A stretch of DNA of 62,790 bases, counting the filler, from Hausera hauseri (lineage: Eukaryota): NCBI GenBank assembly GCA_046269625.1. It is 10 parts of 10 records of this genome, joined end to end, with 100 filler letters (N's around TTAATTAATTAA, not from the genome) between each part and the next. Parts side by side here need not be neighbours in the genome. Positions count along the whole stretch, not along the records: positions 6,649 to 15,279 come from JBJURY010577671.1; 9 more parts are not named here. One strand, given 5' to 3'. A program made the position numbers and the translations under genes. Positions 1 through 61,500 of this stretch are shown here, in pieces; position 1 is the stretch's first letter, and every line of letters starts with the position of its first letter. The notes under the pieces were generated by a model. The model saw only the letters and a program-made list of their open reading frames with translations, was not told the origin of the DNA and did no database searches.

Positions 1-2600
1 CAATTCTTTACGTCAATGTAAATGCTTGGCCAATAGTATTTGTTTAATATTCTTTCCAATGTCTTTTTCCACGACATATGTCCAGCTAAGTATGAATCAT
101 GTTCAGCCATGAGCACTTCTGCTCTTAATCCTTTTGGTATGACGATTAGTTTTCGTCCCTTTCGTTCGTAATACAATACACTTTCTTGATTTGAATCTCC
201 AGTGACGCAATATTTGTGACCATATCTTCGCAGGTGCTTTCGCAACTGATGTCCTCTTGGTGTCTTATCATCATTAACGAATTCCACAATTTGTCGTATA
301 ACATTGTCTTTTCTCTGTTCAATAGTAATCTTTAATGCCTTGTCTAAGGTGAGAGTCCGTTGTCTCTCTACTAAATTTTCAAGGTGCGCCTTCCTCATTA
401 CTGTTACTGCGCTAGTTTTGGTTTTAAGTCTAGATAATGCGTCAGCATCAACATGTTTACTTCCAGGTTTGTATTGAAATTCGATATTGTATCGTGAGAT
501 CTCTTCAATCCATCGGTTAAATCTACAAGTTGGGTTATTTGCTCTCCCTTTTAAAGTTGTGACTGCTTTATGATCAGTGACGATTATAATCTTTTGTCCG
601 TAGACATACACATTGAAATGCCGCAATGCTTCTTTTACCGCCAACGTTTCCAATTCGGTTATGGAATAATTCTTTTCCGCTTTCTTTAATAAGCGTCCTC
701 CATATGCAATCGGGTGTTCCAATCCCTCGTCTTCTCGTTTTTGTGCTTGTTCATATCCAATACCTTCCTTACTGGCGTCTGTTTTGATTATGAATGGTAG
801 GTTGAAGTCGGGATATCTTAAAACAGGTTCGCTAGTTAGAATTTTCTTCATTTTGTCAAAAGCCTTTTGTTCAACATTGGTCCATTTCCATTTGATCCCT
901 CTGTTTAATAAGCGATACATGGGTGCATTTATCTTTGTGTTTTCTGGCACGTAGGTAGCGTAATATCCACATAATCCTAGCCAATGCCTCAATTCTTTTT
1001 GATTTTTTGGGCTCTATGCAATCCGATATTTTACTTAATAGTGATTTATCCGGTTTTGATCCTTCTTCTCCAACTATATGTCCGAGGTAAGATACAGCAT
1101 TCTGAGCCCATTTACATTTTTGAGGATTCAGCTTTAATCCAGCTTGCTCTAATCTCATGAGCGTACCTTCAATACCTTTTATATGATCCTCTTCCGTTTT
1201 CGATGCAATCATGACATCGTCCAAATAAGCGAACGCGTGTTCTAGCTCCATTAGCATTTTGTTCATTATCCGGGTGAAGATGGCTGGTTCGGCAGTTATC
1301 CCAAATGGCATGACATTAAATTCGTATATACCGTTGTGTGTCTTAAATGTTGTTTTATAGCGGTGTTCCTCTTCTATCTGTACTTGCCAATATCCATACT
1401 GTAGATCGAGCGTGGTAAACCATTTAGTTCCCGAAAATCTGTCTAAAGCTTCCTTTACTGATGGTAACGGAAAAAAGTCCTTCATCATAAGTGTATTTAA
1501 TGCTCGATAGTCGATACAAAACTGGTGTTTACTGGTACCTTTCTTCTTAACCATAAGTATAGGCGAGTACCAAGATCGGTAGCTTCGTCTAATTATGTCC
1601 GCCTTTAACATTCATTCAACTTCCTTAGTTATCTCTGGCCTTAGCTAGTGTGGAGGAGGATACCATTTCGGCATCTTTTGATCCTCAAAGTCTATTTCAT
1701 CGCCAGATCCCGGCTTTTTCTTAAGCGGAATCGTGAGCCTTAAAGTTTTGACTCGACCAATATCTTCTTCGTCTCTCGCGATAATTGAACTATAACGACA
1801 GAGCAATTCGTAAAATCGACAATGTGATTCTGGCGAGAACTTAGTTTCCACGTTGGGCGGAAATTCTGCACCCTTATATGGTTTCTCTTCAGCAGTGATT
1901 GATGATACTCTACACGTGTGTCTCAAAGTGGTATTGGCGTACAATTTAGTCGGGGTTGGTGCATTATTGGCTATCCTGATTCGCAGACGGCCTGTCGATA
2001 CTCTTGTCAAAACATTACTGAGTACGAGGTTTGCTTCGAGTGATTTTTTTGGTTCGAAATATACTGGCTGATCGACATCTTTATGTATCTGAGGATATAT
2101 TAGGATTTCAGTTCTGGGTGGTATAATTTCATCCACTGGAATCCACACTTCTCCAAATTTTTTGTCTTTCGTGGTTTTAACACCTTTTATTGGGCCAAGT
2201 TCTATCAACTTGCCTGCATTGAAATCGATTGCTATATTGGGTAATTGTCTAAGTAAGTCACATCCTAACACTAAATCATCTGTTAATTGCTTCATTACCG
2301 AGAATTTATGACGAAAAGATTGTCCTATTATGTGAATTTCTGGTTTCCATCGGAATTTACTCTTCGAAGATCGTCCGAAAGCTCCGATGCTTCCTGGGTC
2401 TGTCGTATGAAGTGGATATCATTGTTTCCGTAAGAATTGTGGAATCGAATCATATTTTATCAGTGATATTTCAGATTCTGTATCTATTAGTGCATAAACC
2501 TCGCAATCTTCCAACTGAATCTTTGCGAAGGGCCTGCCTTCGATTACTGTACCGTAATGGCTTGGTGCTATCTTGGGTTGTCGTATGGTAGAGACTTTGT
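1..2600 (-). pseudogene. pol: Gypsy pol: aspartic protease, RT, RNase H, integrase N-terminus
   Basis: PR reads YALIDTESEISLI near 2460-2500 (DTG changed to DTE). RT ORF 871-1611 has FCIDYRALN, MPFG, YLDD. RNase H has TDASKEGIG, ELETLA, TDHKAV, DALSR (about 430-800). IN has HDSYLAGH...YYWP (1-110). Confidence 0.95.
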
Positions 2601-2699
2601 AACCGTTGATGGTAACTTTAGTGGTTCCAACTTGCTGCTCGACTAACTGTCTTAACTCTCCAATTGGATATAGTGCATTATTCGTTTCATTCGCCTTTT

Positions 2700-3038
2700 C
2701 TACTCTCTGGTTTCTAACTGGCGGCTGAACATCTGAAGTGCGGAGATTTCGTGCTTTATGGCTTCGAGTAAATATCGATGGTGTTTAGGTATTGGCTTAG
2801 GTATTCTGGGCGAATAAGTTCTACCGTGGTCGTCGACTGCTGATCTATGGTGTGGCACCGAGGTTTTCGCTGTTTCGTGGATCTTACGCAATATCCCATA
2901 GCGTTTTGTTCCTTCGTAACGATCCTCTAGACTAAACGGCTTGCGATAGATGTCTGTCTGGCACGAACTCATAGACTGTATCTCGCAATCTTCATATATA
3001 GGCGCTGTTGGCGGCAATATTGGTAATGGTAGTTTCAT
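2700..3038 (-). pseudogene. PTAP-containing linker preceding the protease
   Basis: LPPTAPIYED...YEGTKRYGILRK is homologous to LPPTAPVYED...YEGTKRYGILRK in ORF 7901. Confidence 0.8.
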
Positions 3039-3133
3039 AACGGAGGCATGTTGCTATCAATCGGTACTACGTTTTTATCATATTGCTCATTTTCTTCATC
3101 CGTTTGTAAATACTCAAAATACACTGCTGCATC

Positions 3134-6100
3134 TCAGACTCCTATTATTCGTCCTACCTGTTGTTCTGCTTTGGCCTTTCTTATAGTCTCTTCCTTTGTT
3201 TCATCGATAGCGGTGGTTACCACCAACCGGTTTACTTCACCTGGGATAATTCCAACTTCTATTAATATTTCCGTATCGTCTAGTATCTTTCCTCGGAAAT
3301 AAAGCCTGTAGTTTAACTCATTAGCGTACCCGTTGTGCTTTATCCACAGTAATACATCACTTACAAGGGAGCGCGTAGTGAACTTTTGTTCTTTCTCGTC
3401 CATCCAATCTGATGCTATTTTTACTAGAATCGTCTCTTCTGCCTTTGCCTTTAGAATTTTGGCACATTCTTTGCGTAGAAGCTTAGGTATTGTACTGAAG
3501 ATCGTACCTTCACTAGCTAATTTAGTTAGAGTGGAGACTAGCTGTCTTAATTGAATTTCAGTAAGATTTATTTTAATCAGCTGAGTTAAATCCTTCTCGG
3601 TTTGCGCTGGGTCCAGAAGCATTTCTACGTTGAACCTTTGTTTCGGAGAATACATTTCCATTTCGCTTAAGTGTATTGGGGTTTTCGGATTTTCCGCAAT
3701 CATTGCATCTAAATAGGCTTCCCAATCTGGTTCATTTTCACTATCTGGCAGTTGACAGTTTTTCAACGGTGTATCGGCTGGCCTGCCCACCACTGTGGGC
3801 CACGTAGTTGCTCGGAGTTCTTGTAATTTCTGTTGCATCTGGACCATTTTCGTCGTTCGGATACATCGCCCATTAGCGGACGTTTGGTGGAGCAGTGTTA
3901 ACAACAAACATAATTCTTCGGGTGGAATTAGACTCTTTTCTTGATATTTCGTTAGCTCGGACGTGAAATCTCTTTGCCATCTTTGAATGAATTGTGACTT
4001 GTCAGCCTTTTCGACTTCTGTGAGAACATATTTGTTTTTGTAGACTTCAAGTTCTCTAGCTAGTTCGTCTAACCTTATCGCTCTCTGTTTTGTCTTAATG
4101 CAAGTTTCTTCGACTTGCTGTATCTGCTGCAACAATTGCCTTAGTTCTTCGTCACTAATTTCTGCCATTTCTACCATCAATAGCGTTAGTTCGTACATCT
4201 CATTAATGTTCTTTGAATCCGGATCTATCGCACATAATAATCTTTTACGAACTTGATCTCTTTGAAGTTAAGATGGAGGTCGTTCTTTATTTTAGTTAAT
4301 TCAGTATGAAGTCTTTGATCCGTTCCATCTCTCCACTCTTGGGGACGATGTAAGAACTTAACTGCTTCTTTAACTTGTGACCGGTATTCGGGACAAAAGT
4401 TCAAAGTTTTAAGATCTCGGATCGAGATTTTTTCAATAGGTTTGGCTGTCAACCAGCGTATTCCCTTCAGGCGGACGTCTGTTAATCGTGAGTAGAAATC
4501 GCAAGTCGCATTCCGCTTTCGAGTGAAGTTTGTTTCTTCAATCATTTTATATATATCGTTTAACACCATCATCTCTTCTTTCCTTTCGATAAAGTTTAAT
4601 TGACGTAGTGCCTCGAGTTGGGTTCGGATGTCGATCTCTGCTTTCATCGTATCTAGGTTTCGAGCGTCTTCTTCCAGCTGCTTCTTAAGGGTAGGTTCGC
4701 TTTCTGGGAATTCCTTTTTCCGATCGGCCACTAATTCATTCAACCTCGTTATCACTCCTGACCATTCTTTCCACTGGTTAGCGATTTTTGGCTTTGCCAG
4801 TATTGCTTTATTTAACATTTAGCGGGAGTCGTCTAGCTGGTCATCTGGACCTCTAATAAAATCGATGATCCGGTAGGCATAGTCAAACTCATCTTTATAT
4901 TCATCGAATTCTAGGGTACAAGTTAAAATTATTTTCTGTGTTTCATTATCCGATGGGTGCATGATCCTATTCCTTAGACTATATATCTGCGACCGCTTTT
5001 CAACTTCTATTTTAAGACGGTTTTCCAGACTAGTATATTGCCTTATCGCAGTAGAAGCGATTTTTATCATTTCCATTTAGGGCAAAATATCCAATACATC
5101 TATGCCCAACATCTCTAAGTCGTTTGCATCTCGTTCCTTGACCGGCTTCTTTTTCAGTTGCTCAATTACGATGAATCTAATTTCGTCCATGACACGCTCC
5201 AAATTAAGTGCTGCTCTTTTTAATTTCCGTTTGAGATCTAATGTAGCTAATAACGACTAAGCCCAGTTGACTCTAGTTTTAATGTTTTGGGTAGTTTTAT
5301 CCCATGTCTCCGGAAATTTCGTTTTGCTTTCGATCCACCGTTCTAATTCACGTTTCCACTGAACTAGGGTTTCTTTTGCCACCTCTTCTGGCTGATCCGA
5401 ATCTATAACTTCACTTAGTTTTCCTTCGCAACACAGTTTCATATTTTTATATAATCTTGCTAGAAACTGCTGTTCCTTTCCAGAAATATCCACTTGTTCG
5501 CTCATTGCTTTGAGCTTCTCTAGATTCTGTCGTAATGTTTCTGGGTTGCGACAATTCATCCTCATTCTCTTTAACTCCTCTGCATTTTTCTACGAGCGCC
5601 TGATTTTCTTCATTTTAGGGTCGAGTTTTTCTTCTCGTTCTGTTTCCTCTTCTCTCGTAGGTAAGGGACATACATCATTTATTTCATCTATAGATTTTAT
5701 CAGCTAACCCATCTCGCTGGGCGTAACTAAATTAATTTTCGAAATGTCGGAGGCACAATCCGTTTTACTGTCTAATGCGAATTCCGTATCTTTCTTTGTC
5801 TTTGATTTTTCTTTGATTATTTGGGATCTCGAATAATCCTTACGTTTCCTTCTAAGTGATGGGCTACGGCCTCTATTCTTGGTGATTTTAAGTATAAGCG
5901 GTTCGAGAAATTCTTCTCTTTCGTCGGCCTCTGCCTCTTTGGTTACCTTCTCTGCAGTATACTCAGGTCCTAAATCCGCTTTATCCGGAGTGTCAGGCTT
6001 CCATGATTCGGTTGGTTCTTTGTTTAACGCAGGAGCGGTCTTTTTCCGAGTCATATCACTTAGCCTTGGTGGGCCTATGGAATGTTCATATTCCGTTTTG

Positions 6101-6330
6101 GGTTCACGCAGGCCACGGTAAACTTCCATTAGTCGTAATTTGTGCACATATTCATTTCTAGCCACTAAAACTTTGGGGTCCTTAGTCTCAGGCTGGGCTT
6201 TTAGAAAACGTCGTAAATCCTGTATTTCGATAATCATTCCTGTGTCTCTACAAACACCGTAAATGGCTTCTAAATTTTCGTTTTTAATTACATTTGTTTT
6301 ACTAGGTTCCACAAACGATACACTTCGCGA
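3134..6330 (-). pseudogene. Cargo region between Gag NC and PR: charged, probably coiled-coil segments and a C-terminal ubiquitin-like domain
   Basis: ORFs 5704-6366, 5257-5565, 4819-5076 and 4225-4818 share one frame; 3134-4198 follows after a frameshift. Ubl-like motif RLYFRGKILDDTEILIEVGI at 3218-3436. Confidence 0.7.
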
Positions 6331-6336
6331 ATTCGG

Positions 6337-6548
6337 ACAGGACTTCGCTGTGTCCTTCTTGTCCACATGTGAAGCAGACTAAATTGCCATTTCTTCCAAC
6401 TCTTTGTCGACCATCTTTGTTTAACGGAGATTTCGATCTACTCGGATTTCTATTATAACCTTGCTGCGGTGGAGTCTGTCTAGGGTCTCCATATTGGCGA
6501 TTATTATCACTCCGGTTTTCATTGTATCGACTCAGGTTTTTAGAGCCA
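6337..6548 (-). pseudogene. gag: Gag C-terminus with CCHC zinc knuckle (frameshifted)
   Basis: Manual translation gives ...RSKSPLNKDGRQRVGRNGNLVCFTCGQEGH/(fs)/AKSCPNSRSVSF, i.e. CX2CX4HX4C after an R/S/N-rich region. Confidence 0.85.
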
Positions 6549-6648: not shown

Positions 6649-6649
6649 T

Positions 6650-7813
6650 TTTATTAAAATTAAAGAACTAAAGTTCAATGAGACTACAGGAAAGAGATAT
6701 GTGGACAAATCAGAAACCAATTCGAGAACACGTGAGGATGTATCAGAACACTCTACACCTATTATGTTAATTTCGGATCAGCATGGATTGAAATTTATTA
6801 AAAAAGAGATGATTTCTCGCTGTGATGTAGTGATGTTTGCTACAAACTATGAAGCGTTTTTCGTCGCAGAAACGGTGATAAGTGCGAAAACTTATAAGCT
6901 AGAAACATAGGACGTCCGTATTGAAGATTGCCTGAAAAATATGGATGATTACTTCTACTTTAAAGGGCAAGTCGGAATAACGGAATTATATAATAAAATA
7001 ATAATGAATGACTGCAAATTAAATACGGAAATCATGAGAACTAAAATGGCTCTGATATATGAAAAACCAGATTTGGCTTCTCTAATAATTCCCATGAGAG
7101 AAGGAATTTTCGGTCGGGTAACAGGCGAAGCATTGCTAACCTATGAATGCGAAAAGAGGGACGTACCCATCAACGTGGAAGAAAAACGTTGCATTCAGGA
7201 ACATCCTGTTATTTACCAAAGTATTCCTAGGTTAGCTACACCGCTGACAAGAGTGTTATTGGATAATGCTACCCAGCCAACCATCCCTAAAAATTGTAAA
7301 GCAAGCTTAGGAAAACCCATATTTAGACGTAGTGAAACAGACTGGGTAAGCTTGCCAAACGGAGATATTATTGCCGTTCCAAATTAACTGACAGAAACAA
7401 ATCTTGAGAAAGGAATTACAAACGAAAAATTTCAAGATACCTCATCAAAAGGTATATATAGGCCAAAAGAGATTGAACCATTCAGACAATTCCTCGCTTT
7501 TCCGCGACAGCGAACGCACGAATTGAACCGAGCCATGGCCTCAGTAGTAGACGATACATGATATAAAGCTAAATGGGAATCATTACTTAGCGTAAACCAT
7601 TATCTATTAGTACCCACGGAAATACTCTACAAAATTTGGGGAAGATTTTTGATTTTCGGACAAGCCGCATCCGGATTCTTAGTGATATATTTTATGATAC
7701 AAATGATTGAGGCAGTCATCCAAGCAGTAATAAATGGGTACAAAATATTTACACTGATTGGATTTTCATGTAAAATACTGATGGTGATCATAATGCCCTT
7801 TGGAAAATTCTAA
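6650..7813 (+). pseudogene. Chuvirus (Jingchuvirales)-like class III fusion glycoprotein, C-terminal half with membrane anchor
   Basis: GIFGRVTGEALLTYEC..CIQEHPV..PLTRVLL..NC..P.F..W, then KGIY..FLAFP..KIWGRFLIFGQAASGFLVIYFMIQMIEAVIQAVINGYKIFTLIGFS. This matches the recalled chuvirus G pattern (G..AGEV..C..CY.ELPV..P.TRIL; GIY..FP; W..F..FG..SAG..GY). One frame, with stops at 6908, 7385, 7559 and 7811. Confidence 0.85.
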
Positions 7814-7900
7814 AAGGCATACGAAGAAAACAGATGGAAATCGGACGTAGAACGCCATGTCGGTTATTATAATCGTAAACAAAGAGGAAGGCCTATATTC

Positions 7901-9247
7901 TTGCGGAAGGGGAAATTTACAAAAACCAATATGCACAGAAATAACTCACATGATGACGATCCTAAGGGAGGAGACGTACTTCCTGGGATAAACAGACATA
8001 AGACATACTCTGTCATTAAAGCGCTATTGCCTATGCTACCGCCCACCGCTCCGGTCTACGAAGACTGGGATAAATGGTCAATGAGTTCATATCAGGCGGA
8101 AATTTATAAAAAAACAATTAATGAAGAAGGCCCTTATGAAGGAACGAAACGTTATGGAATCCTACGGAAAATGTGTTACCGACAATCCACAGATGGTCCC
8201 AAGATGTTGTATTTTCCGAGAGAACCACAGAATATAGAAACTAGATCAACAGTTTGGGACAACCCAAGGTTAAAAACCTTCCAGAATACCGAACTACACA
8301 CTAACAATGAAGAACCATTAATTAGTACGCACAAAACGGCAGAATTGCATATAAAAAACACCGAGCTATATCCAAACGAAGAATTAAGACAATTGTCGGA
8401 GAATATAGTATCCTTCCCCGAAATCCGAATCAACGGACATAAAATATCGGCGCTGAAACGCTCGAAGGATACATCGAACTGCTTTGGAACAGTAATAGAA
8501 GGAAGACCTTTCGCCAAGATCACTATCGAAAATTGGGAAGCATATGCCTTAATCGATACAGGATCTGAGATGTCTTACATTAAAAATGATTCAATACCTC
8601 AAAAATTGGGAGGTCAGTTATATCCGCCGTTTACGAAAGATCCAGGAAGTACAGGAGCTTTCGGTCAAATGTCAAAACCAATGTTTAAATGGAACCCAGA
8701 AGTTCAAATAGTTGGACAATTTTTCCATCATGAATTTTCAGTTATGGAGCAATTAACCGACGACGTAGTCTTAGGATGTAATTTACTGTTCAGGCCAAAT
8801 AAAGGCGTAAAAAACGCTAAGGATAAAAAATTAGGAGAAGTGTGGATATCATTTGACGAAAACATCTCACCAAGAACAGAAATGATAATTTATGCCCAGA
8901 TACAGCAAGATGACGATCAACCAGTATATTTTGAACCAAGAGATACGTTGGATCCGAATATATTACTCAGCAATGTATTAACAAGAGTACATTCCGGTCG
9001 AGTACCAATCAGAATAGCTAATAACGCGCAAACTCCTGTCAAGCTCCATGCTTATACTATGTTAGGAGACACCTATAGAGTATCATCCATAACCATCGAA
9101 GAAAAGCCCTATAAATATGCTGAATTTCCACCCCATGTCGAAACTAAATTCTCAACCGAATCTTATTGTAGATTTTACGAATTATTATCCGCTACAAATC
9201 TATTATCGCTATGGACGAAGAAGATATTGGTAGAGCAAAAGCATTAA
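7901..9247 (+). pseudogene. pol: PTAP linker, retropepsin protease and degenerate beta-rich spacer domain
   Basis: LPPTAPVY, ALIDTGSEMSYI, DVVLGCNLL. Frameshift near 9190 relative to the contig 1 homologue. Confidence 0.9.
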
Positions 9248-10560
9248 AACAAACCATTCCACTCAAGGAAAAGCCTGGTTCAAACGAAGAAATAGATTTA
9301 GAAGACCAGAAGATGCCAAAATAATACCCTCCACCACATTCGCTAAGACCTGAGATAACGAAGGAAGTTGAACAAATGCTTAAGGCCGATATAATTAGGC
9401 TTAACTATAGATTTTGGTATTCACCAATCCTCATGTTTAAGAAGAAAGGTACCACAAAACATCGATTTTGTATTGATTACAGAGCCTTGAATAATCTTAT
9501 GATGAAAGATTCTTTTCCATTACCATCAGTAAAAGAGGCTTTGGATAGGTTCTCAGGAGCAAAATGGTTTACCACCCTCGACTTACAATCCGGATATGGG
9601 CAAGTAGAAATAGAGGAAGAAGACCGCTATAAAAAGGCATTTAAAACACACCATGGCGTTTATGAATTTAATGTCATGCCGTTCGGTATTACTAGTGGAC
9701 CAGCCATATTTACGAGAATGATGAATAAAATGCTAATGGGACTGGATCATGCTTTTGCGTACTTAGATGACGTAATGATAACATCAAGGACCGAAGAGGA
9801 ACACTTAAAGAACATCGAACATACGCTGATGAGATTGGAACAAGCCGGATTGAAGTTAAATCCGACGAAATGCTAATGGGCTCAAAAAGCAGTATCCTAT
9901 CTTGGCCATATAGTTGTAGAAGGAGGATCGAAACTGGATAAATCGTTACTAAACAAAATATCGGATTGCATAAAACCACAAAACCAGAAGAAGCTAAGGC
10001 ACTGGTTAGGACTTTGCGGATATTATGCAACCTATGTGCCAGGCAATTCAAAAATTAATGCACCTTTATACCGTCTACTTAAAAAAGGAATTAAATGGAA
10101 ATGCAGAGACGTCGAACAGAAAGCCTTCGACGAAATGAAGAAGATATTAACAAGCGAACCTGTATTACGATATCCAGAATTTAACTTGCCCTTTATAATC
10201 AAGACAGACACCAGAAAAGAAGGCATTGGTTATGAATTTGCGCAGAAAAGAGAAGATGAAGAATTAGAACACCCAATTGCTTATGGAAGACGATCTTTGA
10301 AAAAGGCTGAGAAAAACTATTCTGTTACCGAATTAGAAACTCTAGCTTTAAAAGAAGCACTTCGACACTTCAATGTTTACGTATATGGGCAGAAAATTAT
10401 AATTATTACCAATGACAAGGCCGTTATGACCTTAAAAGGATGAGCAAACAACCCGACATGCAGACTTAACAGATGGATCGAAGAAATATCAAGATACAAT
10501 ATTGAATTTCAATATAAACCAGGGAATAAACATATACACGCGGATGCACTATCGAGATTA
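9190..10560 (+). pseudogene. pol: Reverse transcriptase and RNase H
   Basis: FCIDYRALN, MPFG, YLDD; RNase H TDTRKEGIG, ELETLA, ADALSR; internal stops at 9874 and 10441. Confidence 0.95.
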
Positions 10561-10859
10561 AAGACGAAAACAAGCGCAATCACTATAATGAAAAAGAGTC
10601 AACTTGAGGAAATAATAGACCGCCAACGCGCTTTAACGATGGATAAAGCCATCAAAATCTCAACAGAACAAAGAAAGGTTAAGTCATCCATCAGATTATA
10701 GAATTTGCTAAAAAGGATATCATACCAAAGGGACGACAGTTAAAGAAACATGTACACCGACACGGACATAAATACTGCGTCTTAAATGACAAAAGCAATG
10801 AGGATATTTTATATTACGAAAGGAAAGGAAGAAAATTGGTAGTTATTCCAAAAGGACTA

Positions 10860-11940
10860 CGTACCGAAGTGCTGATGTCAGAACATGATTCTTAATTAGC
10901 CGGACACATGTCCTGGAAGAAGACATTAGAAAGAATAATGAATAAATACTTTTGGCCCAGTATCCATATTGGTGTAAAAAATTGGGTGAACGCTTGTGAA
11001 GTATGTTCAACTAAGCAAAAAAAAACGAAAAATTACATGGCCGAATTAAAACCAATTGATGTATCCGATATGCCCATGCAAGCCATGTCGATGGATATAG
11101 TAGGACCTCTTCCTACGATTCACAAGAACAATAAGTACATCTTAACTTCTATCGATCGATTAACTCATTTTGTCGAATTGATAGCATTAATTGATCAAAA
11201 GGTAGAAACCTTGGCAGAAGCCGTAGTAAGAAAAATCATTTGTCGATATGTACCCCCAGACCAGATACTCACAGATCGAGGAAGAAATTTTACCGGTGAA
11301 CTTTTCGAGAAGATTTCCAAAATATTTAAAATCGAACAGTTGACGACTACTGCGTATCATCCTCACTGTAATGAGATGGTAGAACGAATGAACGCAACCG
11401 TCATACGTATATTATCGGCAGTGGTTGCAAAGGACCAGAAAGATTGGGATGAATTTCTAGAAGGAACCCAATTTGCAAATAATACTACACCACATCCAGC
11501 GACAGGATTCACCCCATTTTTCATGATGTATGGACGTTAAGCCGTGTTACCTACGGATTTAGGAATGACGCCATACACGGTTAATCCCGAGTATTTGGAG
11601 CAAAACTTTGCAGAGGTGCTACAAACGCGATTGCGGAAGTGTTGGAAAATCGCCAAAGAATTATCCCAAGAATATTAAGAGCAGTTTAAAAAGCAGTATT
11701 ATAAGAAAGCGAAACCGCATGATATAGAATATGGAAATTGGGTTTATGTGCATTATCCAGTAGCCAAAAAAGGCACATCATTAAAATTAACTAATACAGG
11801 CAGAAGACCGTACGAAGTTACCAGAATTACGCCGACCACAGTATACATTAACAAAAACGGAAAGGAAAAAGTCGTGTCAATACAAAGAGTTGCCAAAACA
11901 GACATACGGCCAAATAAACGTTACAACTTACGCCAACCCG
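10860..11940 (+). pseudogene. pol: Integrase (HHCC, DDE core, GPY/F-like C-terminus)
   Basis: EHDS*LAGH...CEVC, MDIVGPLP, TDRGRNF, NEMVERMN, TGFTPF, GRRPYEV, RYNLR. Confidence 0.93.
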
Positions 11941-11949
11941 ACACAAAAA

Positions 11950-13379
11950 CTTCTTCAATAGTTGCTAGACCGATATTGCACGTTCAGATAGTTTTAGAAC
12001 TATCGTTAACTGCTTCGTACATTCGGAAAACACAAACTCAATGGTGGCACGATTATTCTACACTAGGAGATATACATGGAATTCAGAAAAGTGGATCAAA
12101 ATTGGAAGCTGTTGAAACGGAAAAGAAACCAACAGCCGAAGAAATCCAAAGACAAGAAGACATTAAATTATTACAATCAATGACAATTCATTATTATTCA
12201 CCAAACTCCGTATGTGTTGGATTTAAAGCTTGGAAACCGCATCACGATTTCGATGATTTCAAATTGTCTTACTTGACGTAACCACAAAATAAGCGAGAAA
12301 TTGTGATTTTGAGCCTGCAGACTATATGCAGTGTTGCGACATAGACTTTGGACGCACTTATAACCTCACCTATCGTCCATACTTACCTTACTCATCCGAA
12401 GTTTATATTGAAACAAAGTTACAAATTCAATTAGTCATTTCTGCATGGAATAGATATCATGGAATAAAACCGAACGAAATGTTGCGATCTGTTGACCCAG
12501 ATATAAGAATATTAGACGAAAATATCCGGAGAATCTCCGTAAATAAGGAAAAACAATGCATTCAAGTCGATGCTCGAACAGGATTAACTCTTAGTCAGGG
12601 AATTAATATCCATTTGAAGCAGCAGTTAGACCGACCCCGAAAATAGGATACTGTTCTATTCGTACAGGCGTGCAACATCCATGTTGTAAAGTACCCGTGA
12701 ACCAAGAGTTCAAAATAAAGTTCGACTTATATGAGGTACGGCAAATAAACTAAACATACAATTACGAACTTACTATCCAGAAAATAGAATTTGGAATATT
12801 TCAGTAGAAACAACCACCAAAAGACCGACTACTCAAGTTGGTGCCATTAAGAATACCATTACATCGGGCAGCATGCCTAAGAGAAAATTAGAAAGCATAC
12901 CTATTAAATATTCGGCGCATCAACTTAAAATTGTTTTTCATGGAGTAAAAACAAAATTACGATATACACATAAGTTGTCGAACGACATATAATAATCAAA
13001 TTGTAACATTATTTAAAATCATTTACCAAACGGAGTGCAATTTACTAAAACCACAATTCAAATACTTAGTACAGGTGCATGCAGAAAACAAACAATCCCA
13101 AACAATTACATTGCATATCTTAGACAAAATTCACGCGGAGTAGCATACGCATGAAAATATAGACGACGAAACTACAACGTCATTTACTACTCGAGCGCCA
13201 CTAGGATCAACTGCCTTACCGATTGCATCTATTGCGTACTGTCAACGTCTGTTCTCATTATATTAATTGCGATTTTTCGACTAGTTACCAAAAACTGTTA
13301 TTCTAAGCGTCATAAAAATTCGGAATGGGATTTAAGGGAGTTGGAAAACCCCGTAGACCTATATGATAAAATAAACTGA
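11950..13379 (+). pseudogene. Putative type I membrane protein with fibronectin type III-like repeats, continuing from the integrase frame
   Basis: Hydrophobic ILHVQIVLELSLTAS after RYNLR. FN3-like SPNSVCVGFKAW..FKLSY..DIDFGRTYNLTYRPY..SSEVYIETK and NLLKPQFKYLVQVHAENK. Thr-rich stalk, TM-like PIASIA/(fs)/VLSTSVLIILIAIFRLV, tail ending LYDKIN* at 13379. Confidence 0.6.
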
Positions 13380-13451
13380 CAATTACAGATCAGGTTATAC
13401 TGTCATCAAACAAAGAATTGGTTTTGGTTTAAGACCATCCTTTGTTTTAAG

Positions 13452-13477
13452 ATTAACCTTTATGTTTTCATTTTTAG
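13452..13477 (+). promoter_or_regulatory. Putative 3' splice acceptor
   Basis: ATTAAC branch-like motif, T-rich tract, TTTTTAG, immediately before an ORF with no ATG. Confidence 0.5.
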
Positions 13478-13478
13478 A

Positions 13479-14003
13479 TTGGTAGGTAATCAGATCCATA
13501 TAGACCCAAGCCGAATTAGAATCGACGCCAAGGGAGTCACGAGCCGACTTAGCATCGACAATGAGGAAAACACAAGTCGACTGAGTATCGACGAATTTTT
13601 ACAGCGATACGTAACAGTGCGAATTCCGAATTTAAAGGCCATCTATAGGCAAATCAATAGGGAGTTACAAGGAAAGAGCTTCGTGCAGTATGTGAAAGCT
13701 GGCGAGATACCAAATGGGTTAAAAGGGACAACCGAGGAGGCCAGAGAGGTATACTTGTACATATGGAGAGAGGACAAAGATTCTAGGGCATACCCCTTCA
13801 AACAGATCACTCAATATTAAGTGGATAAAGAGCAGAAGATATATGTACACTTGGCCGACGGGGAAATTTACTATCGGATGAAAGATCAGAAATGGGACTC
13901 TTTCCAAGAAAGGCAAAGCCGATTTAGTACGTTTGTAGTTGATAGTAGGAACTTCCGTAACTATGAGTTGGAATTTCGTGTGTCTGCCTTACCTGTAAAA
14001 TGA
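13479..14003 (+). pseudogene. Accessory ORF of unknown function (two same-frame pieces split by a TAA at 13818)
   Basis: ORFs 13479-13820 and 13821-14003 are contiguous and in frame. Confidence 0.5.
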
Positions 14004-14636
14004 TGATCGAAGTAACGGAAGAGAAAACAATACCCATCTCGTTGCCGTTCTTAGAGTTTAGACAAAGGCCCACGGAAGAAGAACATGACGCACATCTACA
14101 TTCGTTTAGATTGGTAGCAGATGAAAGGAATCTCAGGATTGCCGCAATAAACTATGGGGAAGGAGAAGACGGAAATTATATTCCGATCGAAATATCCATC
14201 CGGGTCGAAAACTGGGCCGAGGTCTATTCGAGAATCATTAACCCGAGAAAGAAAGTATTAGAGACTTATGCAGATGTTACCGGGATTAACAGAGCAATTA
14301 AATCATGGGAAGGATACCAAGTTAGTGGAACAAGAAGTAGCACAATGCCTCTATGGATACGTCTTAGTGGGGTATCAAGTAGAGAGGATGATAAAGAAAT
14401 TAGCCATACCGGTAACGCATATAGCCGGAGTGAGAGATATAGAAACCCACCCGACTGTTATTAGACAAATGGAGATTAATGTTGAAGAGAAAAAGGGTCA
14501 ACTACCACCGACCGTGGAAGGCCGTTTTAAGTTAATGGTAGAGACCATGACCGGAGGAAATATAAAAATAAGCAGACTGTTGACTGCTAATCAAAGATCC
14601 AAATATCTAAGGGATATAAATGCTGGATTAAAATAG
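14000..14636 (+). pseudogene. Accessory ORF of unknown function, probably frameshifted
   Basis: Overlapping ORFs 14000-14464 and 14268-14636; ATG overlaps the previous stop (ATGA). Confidence 0.45.
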
Positions 14637-14795
14637 GAACACGAATGGATTCCAAATAACCCCGGACAGAACCTTCGGAGTTTTCCCAAGCTAGAAGGAA
14701 TCAGCTCACGTTTTAGAAAAAACTTTCGTTCTTACTCAGCACCAAAAAATGTCGAAATTACACCGAAATGGAACTATCAAATAACCATTCAGGGA

Positions 14796-15251
14796 TTGAA
14801 AACTGAGAAAACAGATAATCAGTGGCAAACCAACGAGAAACCAGTCCAAAGCTATGACACCTCAAGCAATAATAATCCATTTAAAGTACCCGAAATTGTT
14901 CAGAAATACTTAGAAGAAAAAGATAAGAGTTCAGAAATCGAGAGTGAAAAGACAACTAAAAGAGAAACATCCTTCTTCGATTACTTATTTAAGAAGAGAA
15001 GTAAAGAAGAAGAAAAGGGATCAAAAGAAGGACGCAGACCAGACAGAAAGGATTTAAAACCAACACGACCAGATAAACCAAGAACACCAGCAGAAGAACT
15101 CTCAAAAACAGACATGCAGCCCCGTATCGAGAAGTCCACGGAAAAACCAAGCAAACAGAAAGAACAAATAACAGAAATAAACGTCCTACGGAAGAAGACA
15201 TCCACGGAAGATGTTCACTACGCCACTGCAGCAGATTATCCCAGGATGTAA
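14796..15251 (+). CDS. Charged low-complexity accessory ORF fragment
   Basis: K/E/P/T-rich 151-aa ORF on the element strand. Confidence 0.35.
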   Translation: MKTEKTDNQWQTNEKPVQSYDTSSNNNPFKVPEIVQKYLEEKDKSSEIESEKTTKRETSFFDYLFKKRSKEEEKGSKEGRRPDRKDLKPTRPDKPRTPAEELSKTDMQPRIEKSTEKPSKQKEQITEINVLRKKTSTEDVHYATAADYPRM

Positions 15252-16211
15252 ATAGCCACAGAATATTATAGCAAACAAANNNNNNNNNNNNNNNNNNNNN
15301 NNNNNNNNNNNNNNNNNNNNNNNTTAATTAATTAANNNNNNNNNNNNNNNNNNNNNNNNNNNNNNNNNNNNNNNNNNNNCCGCTACCCCAAAGAACGCGC
15401 CCGCTTCGACCGCGAATACTACTCCTCCCTCGCACACCACCGCCATGACGCTCCCAACGGAACCACTTGATATACCCCCGCCAGACCCACGCACCCGCCC
15501 AACCCAATCCATCCCCTCCTCACCTCAGATCACCAACCCGAAAGCCCTCTCCCACCGTACGCCTCAATCCCCGCTCCCCCGCCTCAGCCCGTGTCCGTCC
15601 GTGTCCGTCCGTCCGCACTGTCTTCTTGTTTATTATTCTAATATGTTCCCCTTTCATTTAAACGCCGTTTTGTTTTATTGCACGTCTATATGATTTACAT
15701 TAGAATTATTGTGTAAGTAATCAGAAGAATCTCGCAGCCAGACAATTTTCACTGTTGATTTTACGTAACTGGTAGACCATTTCTTGAATGCGTCATCACT
15801 TTAACCATCCTAGATGTGCCCCATGGAACGATTTCCATAAGTGCTTCAATGATACGCTGTCGCCGGTGACAAAATTAGTGATTTGTTCGCCGCTGAGGTT
15901 TTGTAGCTAATAGCTCATTCTACATCTGCCGAGGGAGGTCAAACCAAGCTGCCTACATAACTAGTGACCACATTCTGTAAAGAGGTTGCGTCAATAAATA
16001 GTCGGTTTCATATTCGTACACCGGCCATGGTGGAATAAGGGGAAATAAAGAGGAGACAAATTAGAGAGCATGACTGCTACAGCAAACAGTAGAGCAATGG
16101 ACGGGGTAGATGTACTGAACACTTTCACGTGTATAGATCGAACAGGGGATTCAAATGGTGCCTTGGAGTCAAACGAAGTGAAAAATGTTGTTGGGCACGA
16201 GTGTTACGCCG

Positions 16212-31934: not shown

Positions 31935-32408
31935 ATATGTGTGTAATTAATGTGTTAAATAGTGAAGCATGGAGTCATAATATGAATATGACTTGTTAAT
32001 CAGAATATGATCAACAGTTTGTGACGAAGAGAATCAATATAATATAGTGTTAACAGTCATAATTTTTTAGAGATTCACAGTGGTGGAGTGTGTTTTGATT
32101 AGGAAAATTTTTAATTTGTTATTGCTCATGCAAATATAGAAGCCTTTCATGCGTGCATTCTAGTATATTACAGGAGATTGTACAGATTTTATATTGAAGT
32201 GAAACTTTGGAAACAAAAAGGGAGGAATGAGATCACACACGTTGACACGTATTCCCACACAGTTTAAGGAAGAGATTCTAAAACTGGGGTCCCAGGACCC
32301 CCAGGTNNNNNNNNNNNNNNNNNNNNNNNNNNNNNNNNNNNNNNNNNNNNTTAATTAATTAANNNNNNNNNNNNNNNNNNNNNNNNNNNNNNNNNNNNNN
32401 NNNNNNCA

Positions 32409-33758
32409 GCAGAAAGTGTAGGGTGGGAGAGGGATTACGTCTGGTTTATTTGGAACACATTCTCCATTATTTCTATGATGAACTTCATCAGGAAATGTGT
32501 AAGGAGGAATTTTCGAGTGGATCAGGGGATAACCAGGACCTTTCCTGCAGAACCCAGAGTTGCAGAAGTCCTGCTACCTGATGTTGCTACTATGCACCAC
32601 TTTTATGCGAAATGTGTTCAAATCTCATCTGAGAAGAAGTGGAGGGAGGGTGAGTTTCTGGAAGGTTTTGCAAATGATCTCTTAGACGCCATGAGGAGCA
32701 TCTGTGACGACGTGGACAGCGTGGTGATCGAAGACTTTCAAGTGGTGAATCCGGGCGATGTCGTCGTTCACCTCACCCCACCCGAGCCGTACAGATTTCA
32801 GTGTCGGCTCGGAAACGACCGGCCGAGCGACCCGCTGTCGGACATGCGAGTCTGTGGTCAAATTAAAGTGGTGGAAGAAAAGAAAATCCAAAATGGCTGC
32901 CCCTGCCAGTCCTCTGATGTGGATGAAGACATGGTTTGTTTGCTGCACTGCGAGGGTGAGAAGGTAAAAACAAAAACGGTGGATGTTTCCGATGGTCTGT
33001 GCTCCAAAAACTCTCCTTTCCTGTCTAAAGCCAAAGTTTCCCGGTGGTTTCAGAACACCATCAAACAAGCGTGGGCGCAAATTTCCCATAAGTACGAATT
33101 TGAGCTCAACATCCGCTACATGGAGGCTCCAGGCTCGCTGGTCATTCGGTTCAGATCAGGGAGGAAGATTTTATTCAACATGAATCCAGTGATTAAATTC
33201 AATGCCGATGCTCATTTTTCCATTAATCCTTGGTCCTCCAGTAATTCGGACATCTTCTGGCCGCTCTCCCTGACCAACTATGAGGACCGCTTTTTGGAAC
33301 ACCTCTCCAAACTCCTCCCTGAAAACTCCTGCCATAATCAAACTCTTGAGATTGCTTGTTTTCTTCACAAGAGACAGACAGCGTTGTCGGGAAGTACTGG
33401 ACTGAAAGAAAGTCATTTCAAAATGGCACTGATGCACCTTCTGTTGACCAAAAAATCCTCTCAGTGGAACCCAGACTTTGTGGCTCGCAGGCTGCAGGAC
33501 TTGCTGGAGTTCATAGAGAAAAGTCTAGAGAAGAAGCTGCTGACCCACGTTCTCATCGGTAACCCTTTAGCCAAGGTCATCAAACTTCCCAGAGAGGTCA
33601 CCAGAGCAAAACCAGTGAACCTCTTCCATCCCTTCGTGGTTCATAGCTGCATTTACAGAAACGCTGTCCATCATTTCCAGGAGATGCTTCGAAACACACA
33701 CATGCTGATAGACGAATACGTTGCCCAGCATACAAACGATACCGGCTTCCCTGTTTGA
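32409..33758 (+). CDS. ITPRIP-like (Mab-21/cGAS-DncV-like nucleotidyltransferase fold) protein, 5' end cut by the contig edge
   Basis: FLEGFANDLL, CPC..DMVCLLH, LCSKNSPFL, AWAQISHKYEFEL, FRSGRKI, LPENSCH, HFKMALMHLLL, LIGN, PVNLF are ITPRIP-family motifs. The frame is open back to 32409 and includes a hydrophobic W/F/I-rich stretch. Confidence 0.85.
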   Translation, partial: AESVGWERDYVWFIWNTFSIISMMNFIRKCVRRNFRVDQGITRTFPAEPRVAEVLLPDVATMHHFYAKCVQISSEKKWREGEFLEGFANDLLDAMRSICDDVDSVVIEDFQVVNPGDVVVHLTPPEPYRFQCRLGNDRPSDPLSDMRVCGQIKVVEEKKIQNGCPCQSSDVDEDMVCLLHCEGEKVKTKTVDVSDGLCSKNSPFLSKAKVSRWFQNTIKQAWAQISHKYEFELNIRYMEAPGSLVIRFRSGRKILFNMNPVIKFNADAHFSINPWSSSNSDIFWPLSLTNYEDRFLEHLSKLLPENSCHNQTLEIACFLHKRQTALSGSTGLKESHFKMALMHLLLTKKSSQWNPDFVARRLQDLLEFIEKSLEKKLLTHVLIGNPLAKVIKLPREVTRAKPVNLFHPFVVHSCIYRNAVHHFQEMLRNTHMLIDEYVAQHTNDTGFPV

Positions 33759-44024: not shown

Positions 44025-47000
44025 CGAAGAAATGAAAGCCGTGTCTCGCGTAATCGTAGCCTTTCCAGGCATTCCTTTCGATCCAAATATCGAGATGAAA
44101 GAATAATTTGCTTTTGTCATAACAAATTCCACAGAGATGCAAGAAAATGTCTTTTGGGCTGTACATTTTACGACGAACGTTATGCAGTAGACAACCCAAT
44201 CTGCATTTATTACACAAAGCATGAGTCCAAGGCTAGGTCGTGTGTGCCAGGATGCAAACATTATAAAAAGAATTCTAGTTTTTCTCCATCTTCTTCGCCT
44301 CCTCGTACTCATCATTTCTCTTCTTTTTCCCAACAAACCTCAAAAAATTAATAACGCCGCAAAATGCCACTGCACATTCTGGTATAGGCGATATCGCTCA
44401 GTGTTTTGGCTGTTTCAACACCGCCTCTGCAGTCTTTCTGTTGAAATCTGAACTGTTATTTGGAGGCACCTCACATATAGACTTCCTTATCGATTTAGGA
44501 TCTGCCTTTTCACTTGTTCCTTTCTCCTTCGCTCCTACATCTTACACAATTTTCTCTTCTTCACTCTTCAATGCCTGTGGTCAACCCTTGAACATTGTAG
44601 GTACCACAAAACTGTCCTTCACATCCTCCAACCTACCAGGAAAATTCTCTTGGAAATTTCACATAGCCAATATTAGATCGCCAATAATAAGCTCCGATTT
44701 CCTGCCTGCATACGATTTGTTAGTCGACTGTAAGCCTAGATGTATCCTGCGTAGAAACTCCGCTGCAAATACCAACAAATGCTCACCAGACGACCAGTCG
44801 TACACCTTCTTGTCTTCCTCTGTTCATTCAAATGTCAATTTGACATGCTGTTCATCGGCTGATAACAATACGCTTAATAATTCATCCACGTTTTCAATTT
44901 TGTCAAGTGTGAACAAATCAATCGTGAAACAATCGGTCAAACCGAATGTCATTAATAAAGTGTTCAGTCATTCTGCATCAATTACAGCCACTGACTCTTC
45001 TAATAATATGCCTTCATCATTCTTATCGTTGGAATCAATCTTAAATCCTACATCAAAACAACTTCTTTCCACACTCTCAAGAAGGACGTCAATTTCAAGC
45101 CGCATTCTACAACTTATTACCACATACTCACCGAACACCAATGACCTATCAGAAAAAAGGTCAGACCACTGTCACCTCGTAGGCGAAAAGCCATTGAATC
45201 AGAGTTCAATGAACTCGAAAAGGCCGGCATTATTCGAAGATCCAAATCTCCATGGGCTTTCCCTTTGCATGTAGTGACAAAGAAAGATGGCACTTACAGA
45301 CCATGTGGTGACTATCGCAGTTAAACTACCTAACAGCCCTGGATGCTTACCCTTTACCTCTCATAAACGACATCCTACACAGTCTTACCAACACTAACAC
45401 GTACTCCACAATTGACTTGCACAAAGCTTATCATTAAATTTCGGTTGCATTTGACGATATTCCAAAAACTGCTGTTATTACTCCATTTGGCCTCAATGAA
45501 TATATCTTTATGCCATTTGGTTTACGTAGTGTTTCCAAAACTTTTCAACGACACATTGATACCGTCCTCTCAAGCCTTGATTTTGCTCATTCATACATTG
45601 ATGACATATTAGTTCCTTCTATTTGTGTTAAACAGCATCAAGAACACCTTCGTATTATCTTTCACAGACTACATCACAGCAATTTGCAAGTCAACTTTTC
45701 CAAGTGTCATTTCTTTCAAAAACGTTTAAATTTACTGGGTCATGTCATCACTCCTCACGGCCATTCTCCACAACCGGATCGACTACAACAATTGAAAAAC
45801 ATAACGCTACCAACGACTAATATACGGATATGAGGAGTTTCTTAGGCACACTCCACTTCATCCACAAATACGTACCTCATTGTTCTGAGCTCACAGCACC
45901 TATCGCATATTCATCTTCAGGGAAAGAGGCCGTTAGTCCACTGGACTCCTGATTTAGTCGCCAAATTTGATCACTTACGCGAAGGCCTAAAATCGTAGAA
46001 ATACTGGCCTATCCGAAGTCCAAGGCAGACCTTATACTCACAAACGATGCCTCAACCACAGCTACCGGTGCAATACTACACCATATTTCCAACGGCGATG
46101 ATGAGCCATTAGAATTTTACTCTAGGAAGCTTACACAACCTGAAAGCCCTTACTCAACATTTGATCGTCAGTTACTCGCCATAGTTCTGGCAGTAAGACA
46201 TTGCAAACACCTCCTTTTTTCTCGTCCATTTGTTATTCAAACTGACCACAAGCCGCTCCTGCATATCATGTCGTTAAACCAATTATCGCCGAGATAAGAG
46301 CGACATATATCATATCTGTCTACGTTCAGTTTTGTTTTAAAATACAATTCAGACACAGACAATTGGTAGCAGATTTTCTATCGAGGTCGATTGGCTCCAT
46401 AACAGTTGAGACGATTTTCTTATCCGAAGACTTAAAGGCCAATCATCCGTCTGTTGACCTCCTTAGCTGTATCAAATCCTTCGAAATCATTGATGGCGTT
46501 GCTTTTGATACGTCGAATTCCGGTAAGAAAAAGATCATTCTAGATCCACGTTTACAAAAGCCAGCCTTCCTTCATACGCATTCACTCCATCATCCGGGTT
46601 CGAAAGCAACCTTTCGCCTGCTTCAACGTCATGTAGTTTGGCCATCAATGCGCGAAGATGTACAGGGCTGGGTTAAGGAATGCGTAGTCTGTCAAAAATA
46701 CAAAATCAAGAAACATCTGAAACCGCCGCTTTACCATTTCCCCTGTACATCACGTTTTAATACAGTTCATCTTGATCTCTTTGGCCCTTTACCTGCTGAC
46801 AACGGATATCAATATATCCTTACTTTAATGGATCGTGCTACTTTCTGGCCTGAAGCCGTTCCTCTTCGTTCAACAAACACTGATTCAGCAGCCGACGCCT
46901 TTGTAAATAGTTAAATCAGCCGTTTTGGTTCCCCACGTTACATAATAACAGATCAAGGTCCACTGTTTGAATCGGAACTCTTTAAATCGCTTGTAAAACG

Positions 47001-48019
47001 CTTGGAGATATCCCATTTCCATACAACTCCATATCATCCTCAAACAAATGGCTTTTTTAAAAGGTTCCATCAAACAATGAAAGTATCTTTAAAAATCTTG
47101 GCTGACACTCATCGTAATTGGATGTCCATTCAACAATTTTTTCTACTAGGGTGGTGCAACACACCCTCTACTACTACCGGTTATGTTCCAGCCGAGGCAC
47201 TCTTTGGGACTCCAATTCGGGCCTTATTTGAACTTTCTGATCTCGACGACAACCCCAGATACGAAAATATTCGTGCAGTACAATCTCACTTCATCGAAGT
47301 CAGCTCAAATTCATTCTGTCGTCTGTTTAACAACAATAAATCCTATATTCTGAAGGATTTATACACCGCCAAGTTTGTATGGCTGAAGGATCAATCATCT
47401 TCGGGTTTTAGACCACAATATGTTGGCCCATACAAACTGTTGAATCTTTCATCTCACACAGCTACCATCTTATGCCAAAATAAACCATACAACGTGCATA
47501 TTTCGAATCTGAAACCCGCTTTCTTCATTGACAAAAATTTGGATGCCAATTCTACCTCCAATTCAGACTCTACTCCTACGCCTTCCGATCTTCTAAATGA
47601 CTTTGCGCCCTCGCAGCAATCACTTTTCTGACTCTCCCTTTTATCATCTTCACCACTCTTTTCATCTCCATTATCGTCATCGCTTTCCATTGCATCGTCC
47701 CTTTTGCTTGACTTATTCTCCTCAGCACACTCATCCGTTTCATCACAAGCATCACCACACATTGAACCATATAATCTGACAAAACTTCCCTCACAAAATG
47801 TCACTCAACAGCCAAACACATATAAGTCAAGTAAGGCACGCAGAGTGACATATGGCACTTACAGGCAAGAAAATTTTTTTGATAATACACAACGCCTAAC
47901 ACATACCAAAATCGAATAGGCACTGAACATTGCTCCTTGTTATTTTATTGTTTTCATCGCCATTATCCTGTCCTTTTTATCTTACATAGTTTCTCTTCTG
48001 CCACGAGGGGGGGGGGCGG
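44025..48019 (+). mobile_element. Ty3/Gypsy retrotransposon (CsRN1/Kabuki-like), decayed: Gag end, PR, RT, RH, IN, PPT
   Basis: Gag C-terminus CIYYTKHESKARSCVPGC; PR FLIDLGS; RT RPCGDYR, MPFGL, YIDD; RH TDHKPL, VADFLSR; IN H..HHPG, CVVC, DLFGPLP, TDQG, YHPQTNG, GPY. Confidence 0.92.
48005..48019 (+). promoter_or_regulatory. Polypurine tract preceding the 3' LTR (LTR probably starts TG at about 48020)
   Basis: GAGGGGGGGGGGCGG followed by TGATGTGG downstream of integrase. Confidence 0.7.
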
Positions 48020-53550: not shown

Positions 53551-53904
53551 TCAATCGAAAATCGTACGCCGATGACGTTTGTTTATAGTTGATGATCTCA
53601 ATGATGCTATACGGCGTTTTCTCAATCCTCTACCAGCGAATTGTTTTTTGACTGATTCAATGACTCCCGGTGAAGCGCTTTTTATTTCTGTCAAGGCGTG
53701 TTTTTTCAGTGATGGTAAAATGGATTTGTTTTCATATAGTGCATCCTGTGCTGTTTTTGCTGCCACGGCTTCAATACGTTTCGACACCGGAAATGCTAAG
53801 CGTGCCAATGTACGCAACCATCCATACAGTTTACCAACGAAATACGGCCGTTCACCGCCCTGCTGAGGTTTACTGTAAATGGAAACGATTTCAGAATCAA
53901 TCAT
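53551..53904 (-). CDS. Polinton basic core protein (pVII-like) with adenain-type GG/GxG sites
   Basis: QQGG..YFVG..WLRTLARLAFPV.K..TAQDAL..GRGLRKRR, located between the minor and major capsid genes. Confidence 0.7.
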   Translation of the reverse strand: MIDSEIVSIYSKPQQGGERPYFVGKLYGWLRTLARLAFPVSKRIEAVAAKTAQDALYENKSILPSLKKHALTEIKSASPGVIESVKKQFAGRGLRKRRIASLRSSTINKRHRRTIFD

Positions 53905-59883: not shown

Positions 59884-59899
59884 CTAAATATAAATGAAG

Positions 59900-60976: not shown

Positions 60977-61319
60977 TTTTAGTCTATTCCTGAGTTTTCG
61001 TCCATATGATTATCATGTGAATTAGCCATGTTGGGTTAATGTATCGTGCTTTAGTTAACTGTAAGATTCCACTAGAGTAACAATACTATTCGTAGGTTTT
61101 CTCGGATCCGAATTTTATTAAATTGGATATTTACGTTGTCTTGTATTAACTAGTCGACGTCAAATCAAAAGCAATACCAAATTAACTGATTTACCTTGAA
61201 GTAGGCTTAATATTCTCCTCAAAGGAACAAATTCGTTTAAATTTCGTCCGAATCAAATCGAAGGTAGGTGAATAAGATTGTGAGATTGAAATTATGTGTT
61301 GTTGTGTACGAATGGTTTC

Positions 61320-61500
61320 GCCTATTTATACCCATTCAATTTCTAAATTGATGCCATGACGTCAATTTCTAAATTTATGTACTGACGTCAATTCGTGTAA
61401 ATAATGATTTCCGAATTCAATTACTAAATTCATGTAATGACGTGAATCTGACGATCTTTGAATTAAAATGACGTCAATGCGACGATTTTAAAATGTAATT
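61320..61500 (-). promoter_or_regulatory. Promoter-like block: repeated TGACGTCA (CRE) motifs and TATAAATAG upstream of the exonuclease-like gene
   Basis: TGACGTCA near 61357, 61383 and 61469 plus variants; TATA on the minus strand at about 61322-61330. Confidence 0.55.

Follow-up and report, generated by a model that had tools for sequence, protein, structure and literature searches.

A decayed Ty3/gypsy element in the genome of Hausera hauseri (NCBI GenBank assembly GCA_046269625.1) carries, directly after its integrase, the broken copy of what appears to be a second membrane-protein gene. We give a probability of roughly 0.45 to the reading that its product is a type I glycoprotein with three predicted fibronectin type III (FN3) domains, which would work alongside the element's own gB-type fusogen by providing attachment or adhesion. 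The components of this reading, namely a frame that runs on from the integrase both here and in two intact distant elements, a fusogen upstream of pol, three FN3-like domains, one transmembrane helix and a tyrosine-containing tail, are very probably correct when taken jointly. Enveloped retroelements are thought to use one Env protein for cell entry. If a second surface protein with an adhesion-type fold is conserved, it would imply that retrotransposons either divide attachment from fusion or mimic receptors. It would also offer a concrete protein for asking how gB-type errantiviruses choose their target cells, for example stem cells or the germ line, and intact natural counterparts (the protein P0122 and the elements L001 and L003, described below) make the question testable without the broken copy.

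Organization of the element

The window, by which we mean the whole stretch of 62,790 nucleotides that was analysed, consists of ten contigs joined by N44-TTAATTAATTAA-N44 linkers (at positions 6549, 15280, 20017, 25891, 32307, 39427, 43925, 48999, and 54671), and adjoining contigs are not genuine neighbours. Contig 6649-15279 is a single decayed Ty3/gypsy element that includes the post-integrase membrane-protein gene; it starts within env and finishes in accessory ORFs. Its features are as follows.

6650..7810, plus strand: gB/chuvirus-type (class III) fusion glycoprotein, of which the contig start leaves only the C-terminal part (PF24664, E 5.5e-38, profile positions 245-591 of 653)
7814..11933, plus strand: Ty3/gypsy pol with protease, RT, RNase H, and an integrase ending in RYNLR (Pfam RVP, RVT_1, RT_RNaseH, Integrase_H2C2, and rve)
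11958..12035, plus strand: signal-peptide-like stretch in frame with the integrase (alignment to P0122 residues 10-36; 19-residue hydropathy of 1.43)
12170..12440, plus strand: predicted FN3-like domain 1, frame-broken (aligned with P0122 75-162; repeat of domain 2; beta strands at pLDDT of about 52-74)
12520..12785, plus strand: predicted FN3-like domain 2, with two frame changes (P0122 model residues 187-263 match fibronectin FN6)
12795..12870, plus strand: Thr-rich linker between domains 2 and 3 (from the sequence; P0122 286-307 is 50% Ser/Thr; same place in L003)
12890..13128, plus strand: predicted FN3-like domain 3, with one frame change (P0122 domain 3 model, Foldseek, and VIA)
13129..13232, plus strand: Thr-rich stalk with one stop (from the sequence and the alignment with P0122)
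13233..13289, plus strand: predicted transmembrane helix with a frame change at its start (Kyte-Doolittle 2.39; P0122 429-447 scores 2.26)
13290..13379, plus strand: short cytoplasmic tail with the acidic Tyr-x-x-Ile motif YDKI (YDRI in P0122), then a stop (alignment with P0122)
14000..14636, plus strand: degenerate DEDD-exonuclease-like gene whose relative position matches that in L001 and L003

The env match is to the Monjiviricetes fusion glycoprotein family. The env region shares its frame with the pol/protease ORF, interrupted by three internal stops and by one further stop ahead of pol, at which the copies in a public run (X1) differ from the window copy; it has hydrophobic windows at 7676 and 7745. 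A gB-type env thus lies directly upstream of pol in frame, as in Burro-like elements and GAG-ENV-POL errantiviruses. The initial annotation had assigned the normal env position to the post-integrase protein. With a fusogen upstream of pol, the latter is a second membrane protein and not a replacement of env. Its further statement that this protein is not a fusogen agrees with our results, as no Pfam fusion family was matched at 11931-13376 and the fold matches are to FN3.

The pol region contains two frame changes and several stops. The part between protease and RT, which we take to look dUTPase-like, aligns with L003 (E 6e-5) and gave no dUTPase match in Pfam. Word-index searches with the integrase plus tail returned 0 and 176 proteins; among the 120 of the 176 that were listed, identity over pol did not exceed about 39%, and the membrane protein was matched by none of them.

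The broken post-integrase gene

The gene occupies 11942-13376 and is broken by five frame changes, with two to three stops on its path. As the initial annotation had described, the integrase frame reads on: it is open from 11679, past RYNLR and into a hydrophobic stretch, up to a stop at 12279, and the protein motifs quoted at that time are all present in the sequence. The frame changes lie near 12256-12290, 12612-12646, about 12743-12745, 12942-12990, and 13235-13268. That the frame is broken had been correctly recognized, whereas the count of four was one too low, the first break lies earlier than the proposed 12325, and the one at about 12743-12745 had been missed. The Thr-rich stalk, the helix, and the tail had been seen; to these are added the signal-like nature of the hydrophobic stretch, the division into three beta domains, and the presence of two Thr-rich stretches.

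A type I topology, with a signal and one C-terminal transmembrane helix, is suggested by hydropathy and by alignment with P0122, the signal stretch of the window copy being weak (1.43); this is in line with what had been proposed. Residues encoded by 13233-13289 form the sole strongly hydrophobic 19-residue window after pol. An ATG scan of 11850-12040 in the window copy found no start codon. Searches of Pfam and PHROGs with single-frame pieces of the gene yielded nothing useful, and a search of Atlas with a window piece gave unrelated leads only, all below 0.9. In this copy, the 1.43 kb of the gene contain five frame changes, compared with two for env and pol over 5.3 kb (P 0.006), and the gene may therefore have turned dispensable before env and pol did.

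An intact relative

A phmmer search with one 117-residue window piece against 1.84 billion representatives gave five matches at E<=0.001, four of which are repetitive artefacts. The fifth, P0122 (E 6.7e-10), is an intact natural protein of 479 residues, a single-stretch relative that is collinear with the window gene from end to end at 32% identity. In a frameshift-aware alignment with X at the breaks, window 11942-13373 pairs with P0122 3-478 (151 identities in 467 columns) through five frame changes, and all cysteines of the pattern are retained. The alignment scores 591, compared with 38-45 for six shuffles; on this sequence comparison, the likeness is not due to chance.

P0122 begins with a Met and a signal-like stretch, followed by a charged linker, three beta domains, Thr-rich stretches, a hydrophobic helix (429-447), and a tail ending in YDRIT. 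Its ectodomain of 393 residues has 10 cysteines and four N-glycosylation sequons. With its own Met, the gene may be separate from pol in the element from which P0122 comes. Used as a word-index query, P0122 found itself only, and no relative was found in metagenome_contigs or in scans of viral_contigs; sequence searches of the PDB gave 0 matches.

The initial annotation regarded the protein as a captured host receptor or adhesion ectodomain. No host homologue was found with phmmer against the 1.84 billion representatives, in the word index, or in the PDB. In addition, domains 1 and 2 are an internal duplication, so that any capture must be old. The sequence WSxWS is a motif of class I cytokine receptors, and it is absent in P0122 and in the window pieces.

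Predicted fold

The fold was predicted with AlphaFold for P0122, three window pieces being added as rows of the alignment, and not for the broken window copy. The model of whole P0122 has a mean pLDDT of 50, with domains 1 and 2 forming beta-sandwiches at about 52-74. In Foldseek, 41 of the 42 rows listed for this model are FN3 modules or receptors that we take to be built from FN3 (best E 3.4e-3). Domain 2 (187-263) superimposes on fibronectin FN6 with a Z of 5.7 and an rmsd of 2.4 over 69 aligned residues. Domain 3 modelled alone reaches a pLDDT of 72; Foldseek relates it to FN3 chains with a probability of 1.00 and a TM of 0.59-0.66, FN3-type structures making up about 36 of the 40 rows listed. 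By VIA against 48,161 chains, its best match is fibronectin (Z 9.1, rmsd 3.0, 84 aligned), and FN3 accounts for three of the four chains with Z>=8. In sequence, domain 1 repeats domain 2 (score 75, reached by none of 1000 shuffles). Domains 2 and 3 of the model are therefore assigned to the FN3 fold by structure, and domain 1 by its repeat similarity to domain 2 alone.

These matches have their limits. No Foldseek match of the P0122 models reached E <=0.001, Ig-like sandwiches score close behind FN3, and identity to the structurally matched cellular FN3 chains is at most about 20%. Neither the window pieces nor P0122 match Pfam fn3 (PF00041) or related families above cut-off. The FN3-like fold that the initial annotation had proposed is supported by the models. 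Taken together, three FN3-like domains in a type I topology are predicted.

Distant elements with a fused membrane protein

A search with RT alone gave 80 loci, 45 of which have an integrase and 14 of which have at least 1,500 bases after it. In two of these 14, L001 and L003, which also rank as the top two of the 80, the Pol ORF reads past the integrase to a C-terminal transmembrane helix; in another, L056, a separate membrane ORF lies downstream. In L001 and L003, Pol ends in frame with a signal-like stretch that is basic and hydrophobic, an ectodomain of 391 residues (11 cysteines, eight to nine sequons), a transmembrane helix, and a Tyr tail. Fusion of Pol to a membrane protein in frame thus occurs in intact relatives, and it is likely in the family of the window element. 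The distance between the integrase and the signal-like stretch is 18 residues in the window versus about 657 in L001 and L003, where a second aspartic-protease-like domain and ankyrin repeats are interposed (L001 3259-6663, L003 3669-7109). Acidic Tyr motifs occur in all four tails (window, P0122, L001, and L003). The proteins of L001 and L003 have a C-terminal T-x-V, which fits the class I PDZ-binding pattern, and the tails of the window and P0122 have no such end.

The third domain of L001 resembles Fn3_Dep-1_1st (E 2.3e-4, 21.6 bits, below the cut-off of 26), and L003 matches Pfam fn3 at E 0.13. Five cysteines and the domain order line up between P0122 and L001/L003. The sequence kinship between them is marginal: hhalign gives a probability of 0.5%, a search with the profile of the L001/L003 tails gave no match, and the global ectodomain scores are reached by 7 and 29 of 500 shuffles. 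When domain 3 was compared with domain 3, in a set of 18 comparisons, 9 and 14 of 1000 shuffles scored as high. The domain-3 piece of the window does not score above shuffles against L001 or L003.

Two independent links connect the window element with L001 and L003. One is the downstream exonuclease-like gene. The window has three decayed accessory ORFs at 13380-15251 (13380-14003, 14000-14636, and 14637-15251), the stop of the first overlapping the ATG of the next at 14000-14003, and a profile of four ORFs from L001 and L003 matches 14274-14480 with E 7.8e-7 among 420 six-frame chunks; ORF3 of L001/L003 matches RNase_T. The other is a tree of RT-RNase H with 57 rows, comprising the window element and its paralogue together with the top 30 of 66 loci and the top 25 of 97 proteins, which unites the window, the paralogue, L001, and L003 with an SH-aLRT of 80, on long branches and with a less careful search.

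Copies of the gene in a public run

Run X1 contains the element family, and 27,213 of its contigs were placed on the element at an 80% threshold. The gene is present in many copies of this high-copy Ty3/gypsy family, as had been anticipated: five listed variable places within it are each covered by 21-97 contigs. Core pol is covered to a mean depth of about 18,300, compared with 15,400 for env, 5,400 for the protease region, about 2,300 for the membrane-protein gene, and 970 downstream, values that cannot separate absence of the gene from divergence because the threshold drops fast-diverging parts. Among the 40 differences shown (of 1,501), five fall in the gene; at four of them the other copies encode the P0122 residue and the fifth is silent, as expected for a gene kept by selection. 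The indel table of the run does not contain the frame changes of pol, and blanks in it therefore carry little meaning. One contig joins 11906 to 13266, skipping the sequence between them.

It is very unlikely that the gene is a passenger, that is, a functionless piece of a host gene gained by one subfamily and fused to the integrase by an accident of decay. The intact relative at 32% identity with all pattern cysteines retained, the family differences that point to P0122 residues, and the intact in-frame counterparts in L001 and L003 speak against this reading; the excess of frame changes, the missing start codon, the lower depth with its one skipping joint, and the chance that a private indel merged two frames in the window copy speak for it.

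At 13273-13560 the depth leaps to 16,660 (86,685 at 13375), compared with about 2,000 over the ectodomain. The end of the tail and the next 100-200 bases are thus common to far more copies in the run than the ectodomain is. A pyrimidine-rich, acceptor-like stretch lies near 13455-13477.

Possible function

An attachment role is favoured because FN3 domains are binding modules, because the protein would be made together with Env in one polyprotein, and because herpesvirus gB requires separate receptor-binding partners. On the other hand, many class III fusogens bind receptors unaided. According to the proposed mechanism, the frame that reads on from the integrase in the window element, L001, and L003 would specify a polyprotein end with three predicted FN3-like domains, one transmembrane helix, and a short Tyr tail, a fusogen gene lying upstream of pol in the window element. 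The internal hydrophobic stretch may serve as a signal sequence by which this end is inserted into the ER; signal peptidase would then free the protein from the Pol polyprotein, and the protein would be glycosylated and arrive at the cell surface. Tyr-x-x-Ile is an endocytic or phosphotyrosine pattern, and it may direct the protein to the membranes of particle budding or cell contact. In the last and least certain step, the ectodomain would bind a surface molecule of the target cell, after which the gB-type Env would fuse the membranes.

We consider it unlikely that the protein instead acts as a receptor mimic in the harbouring cell, where the FN3 ectodomain would trap a host ligand or pair with a host receptor and the Tyr tail would recruit SH2 or scaffold proteins, altering signalling or defence. 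Cytokine-receptor and tissue-factor chains do occur among the fold matches, and the named Atlas clusters nearest to P0122 are FNDC5, the IL-11 receptor, and FNDC9, all below 0.9 and hence leads only. The Tyr motifs of all four tails and the T-x-V ends of L001 and L003 would also suit such a role, as would the precedent of apoptosis and ubiquitin modules described for Burro elements (PMC6431247). However, P0122 does not have the WSxWS motif, the tail comprises only about 30 residues, the searches for a host homologue found none, and the window and P0122 tails do not share the T-x-V end.

Superinfection exclusion, in which the protein would bind the element's own Env or the Env receptor in the producing cell and so block re-entry or cell-cell fusion, is improbable. 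Origin from the same polyprotein as Env, as the frames suggest, would be compatible with it, and such proteins exist in herpes- and poxviruses; the reduced depth over the ectodomain, however, fits fast divergence under any role.

If the attachment role is correct, the elements may form a deep clade of giant enveloped Ty3/gypsy elements with a two-glycoprotein entry, in which a gB-type fusogen encoded before pol would work with a dedicated attachment protein of three FN3 domains, released from the C-terminus of Pol. Such a system would be herpesvirus-like and unlike any described retrovirus or errantivirus; we put it forward tentatively, as a possibility that we lean against.

Relation to known systems

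Env is likewise encoded before pol in the Burro elements of planarians (PMC6431247) and in GAG-ENV-POL errantiviruses with a gB-type env, which occur in nematodes, bryozoans, and flatworms (PMC13524379). Taken by itself, this arrangement makes an invertebrate host likely, perhaps a flatworm. Burro/GYPSM1 resembles the window element in having a mononegavirus-like env in frame upstream of pol and accessory modules, and in having accessory ORFs that may be separate or within the polyprotein (PMC6431247); ankyrin repeats are present in L001 and L003. It differs in that the accessible portions of the review name no FN3 or second membrane protein. The gag, BIR, BCL2, and LTR parts of this comparison fall outside the window contig. 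Expression of Burro is all that the available sections of PMC8532177 provide. The GAG-ENV-POL errantiviruses likewise have a Ty3/gypsy pol preceded by a gB-type env, whereas their annotation, in the portions available, is limited to gag, env, and pol, and 'fibronectin' has 0 occurrences in the accessible text and supplementary file 1 (PMC13524379).

LTR elements of bdelloid rotifers carry cargo other than fusogens downstream of pol, among it DEDDy exonucleases and small transmembrane ORFs, but these transmembrane ORFs have 210-230 residues and, in the available parts of the source, no FN3 assignment, and they are interpreted as env substitutes and not as companions of a fusogen (PMC5408684). 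In reports on OVEX1 (PMC2717909) and the Sparganum genome (PMC8166898), fibronectin appears in the sections at hand as a tissue marker or a host gene family and not as element cargo. A search of the full-text literature, with subscription papers and Repbase outside its scope, found no FN3 protein described as retrotransposon cargo in the portions available. Extra post-pol ORFs (PMC5408684) and the accessory modules of Burro are thus already known, and an FN3-type membrane protein beside a gB-type fusogen was not found described in the parts of the sources that were covered.

Cellular type I proteins built from FN3, such as those with fibronectin modules, Dscam, class I/II cytokine receptors, tissue factor, and DEP-1, are alike in predicted fold and topology. 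Compared with them, the window-type protein has an identity of about 20% at most, reaches no Pfam cut-off, has neither WSxWS nor a catalytic tail, and is intronless and encoded by a retroelement.

Other contigs of the window

An inverted paralogous element occupies 1-6548 on the minus strand, with 72% DNA identity over pol and 83% in RT. A gag-like knuckle lies near 6380, and the protease is preceded by long helical ORFs and by a ubiquitin-like match that is weak (E 0.058); no match to env was found in it, and it stops short of the integrase end. The separate contig 58934-62790, on the minus strand, contains two similar copies of a RING-finger ORF together with an ORF that matches the exonuclease-like genes of L001 and L003 (E 2e-11), and probably represents the accessory end of a further giant element. 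At 44279-47631 there is a decayed gypsy pol unrelated to the main element, to which it has about 30% identity. Some of the other contigs are presumably fish-like (32355-33758 and two non-LTR elements), and 52363-54718 we take to be Polinton-like.
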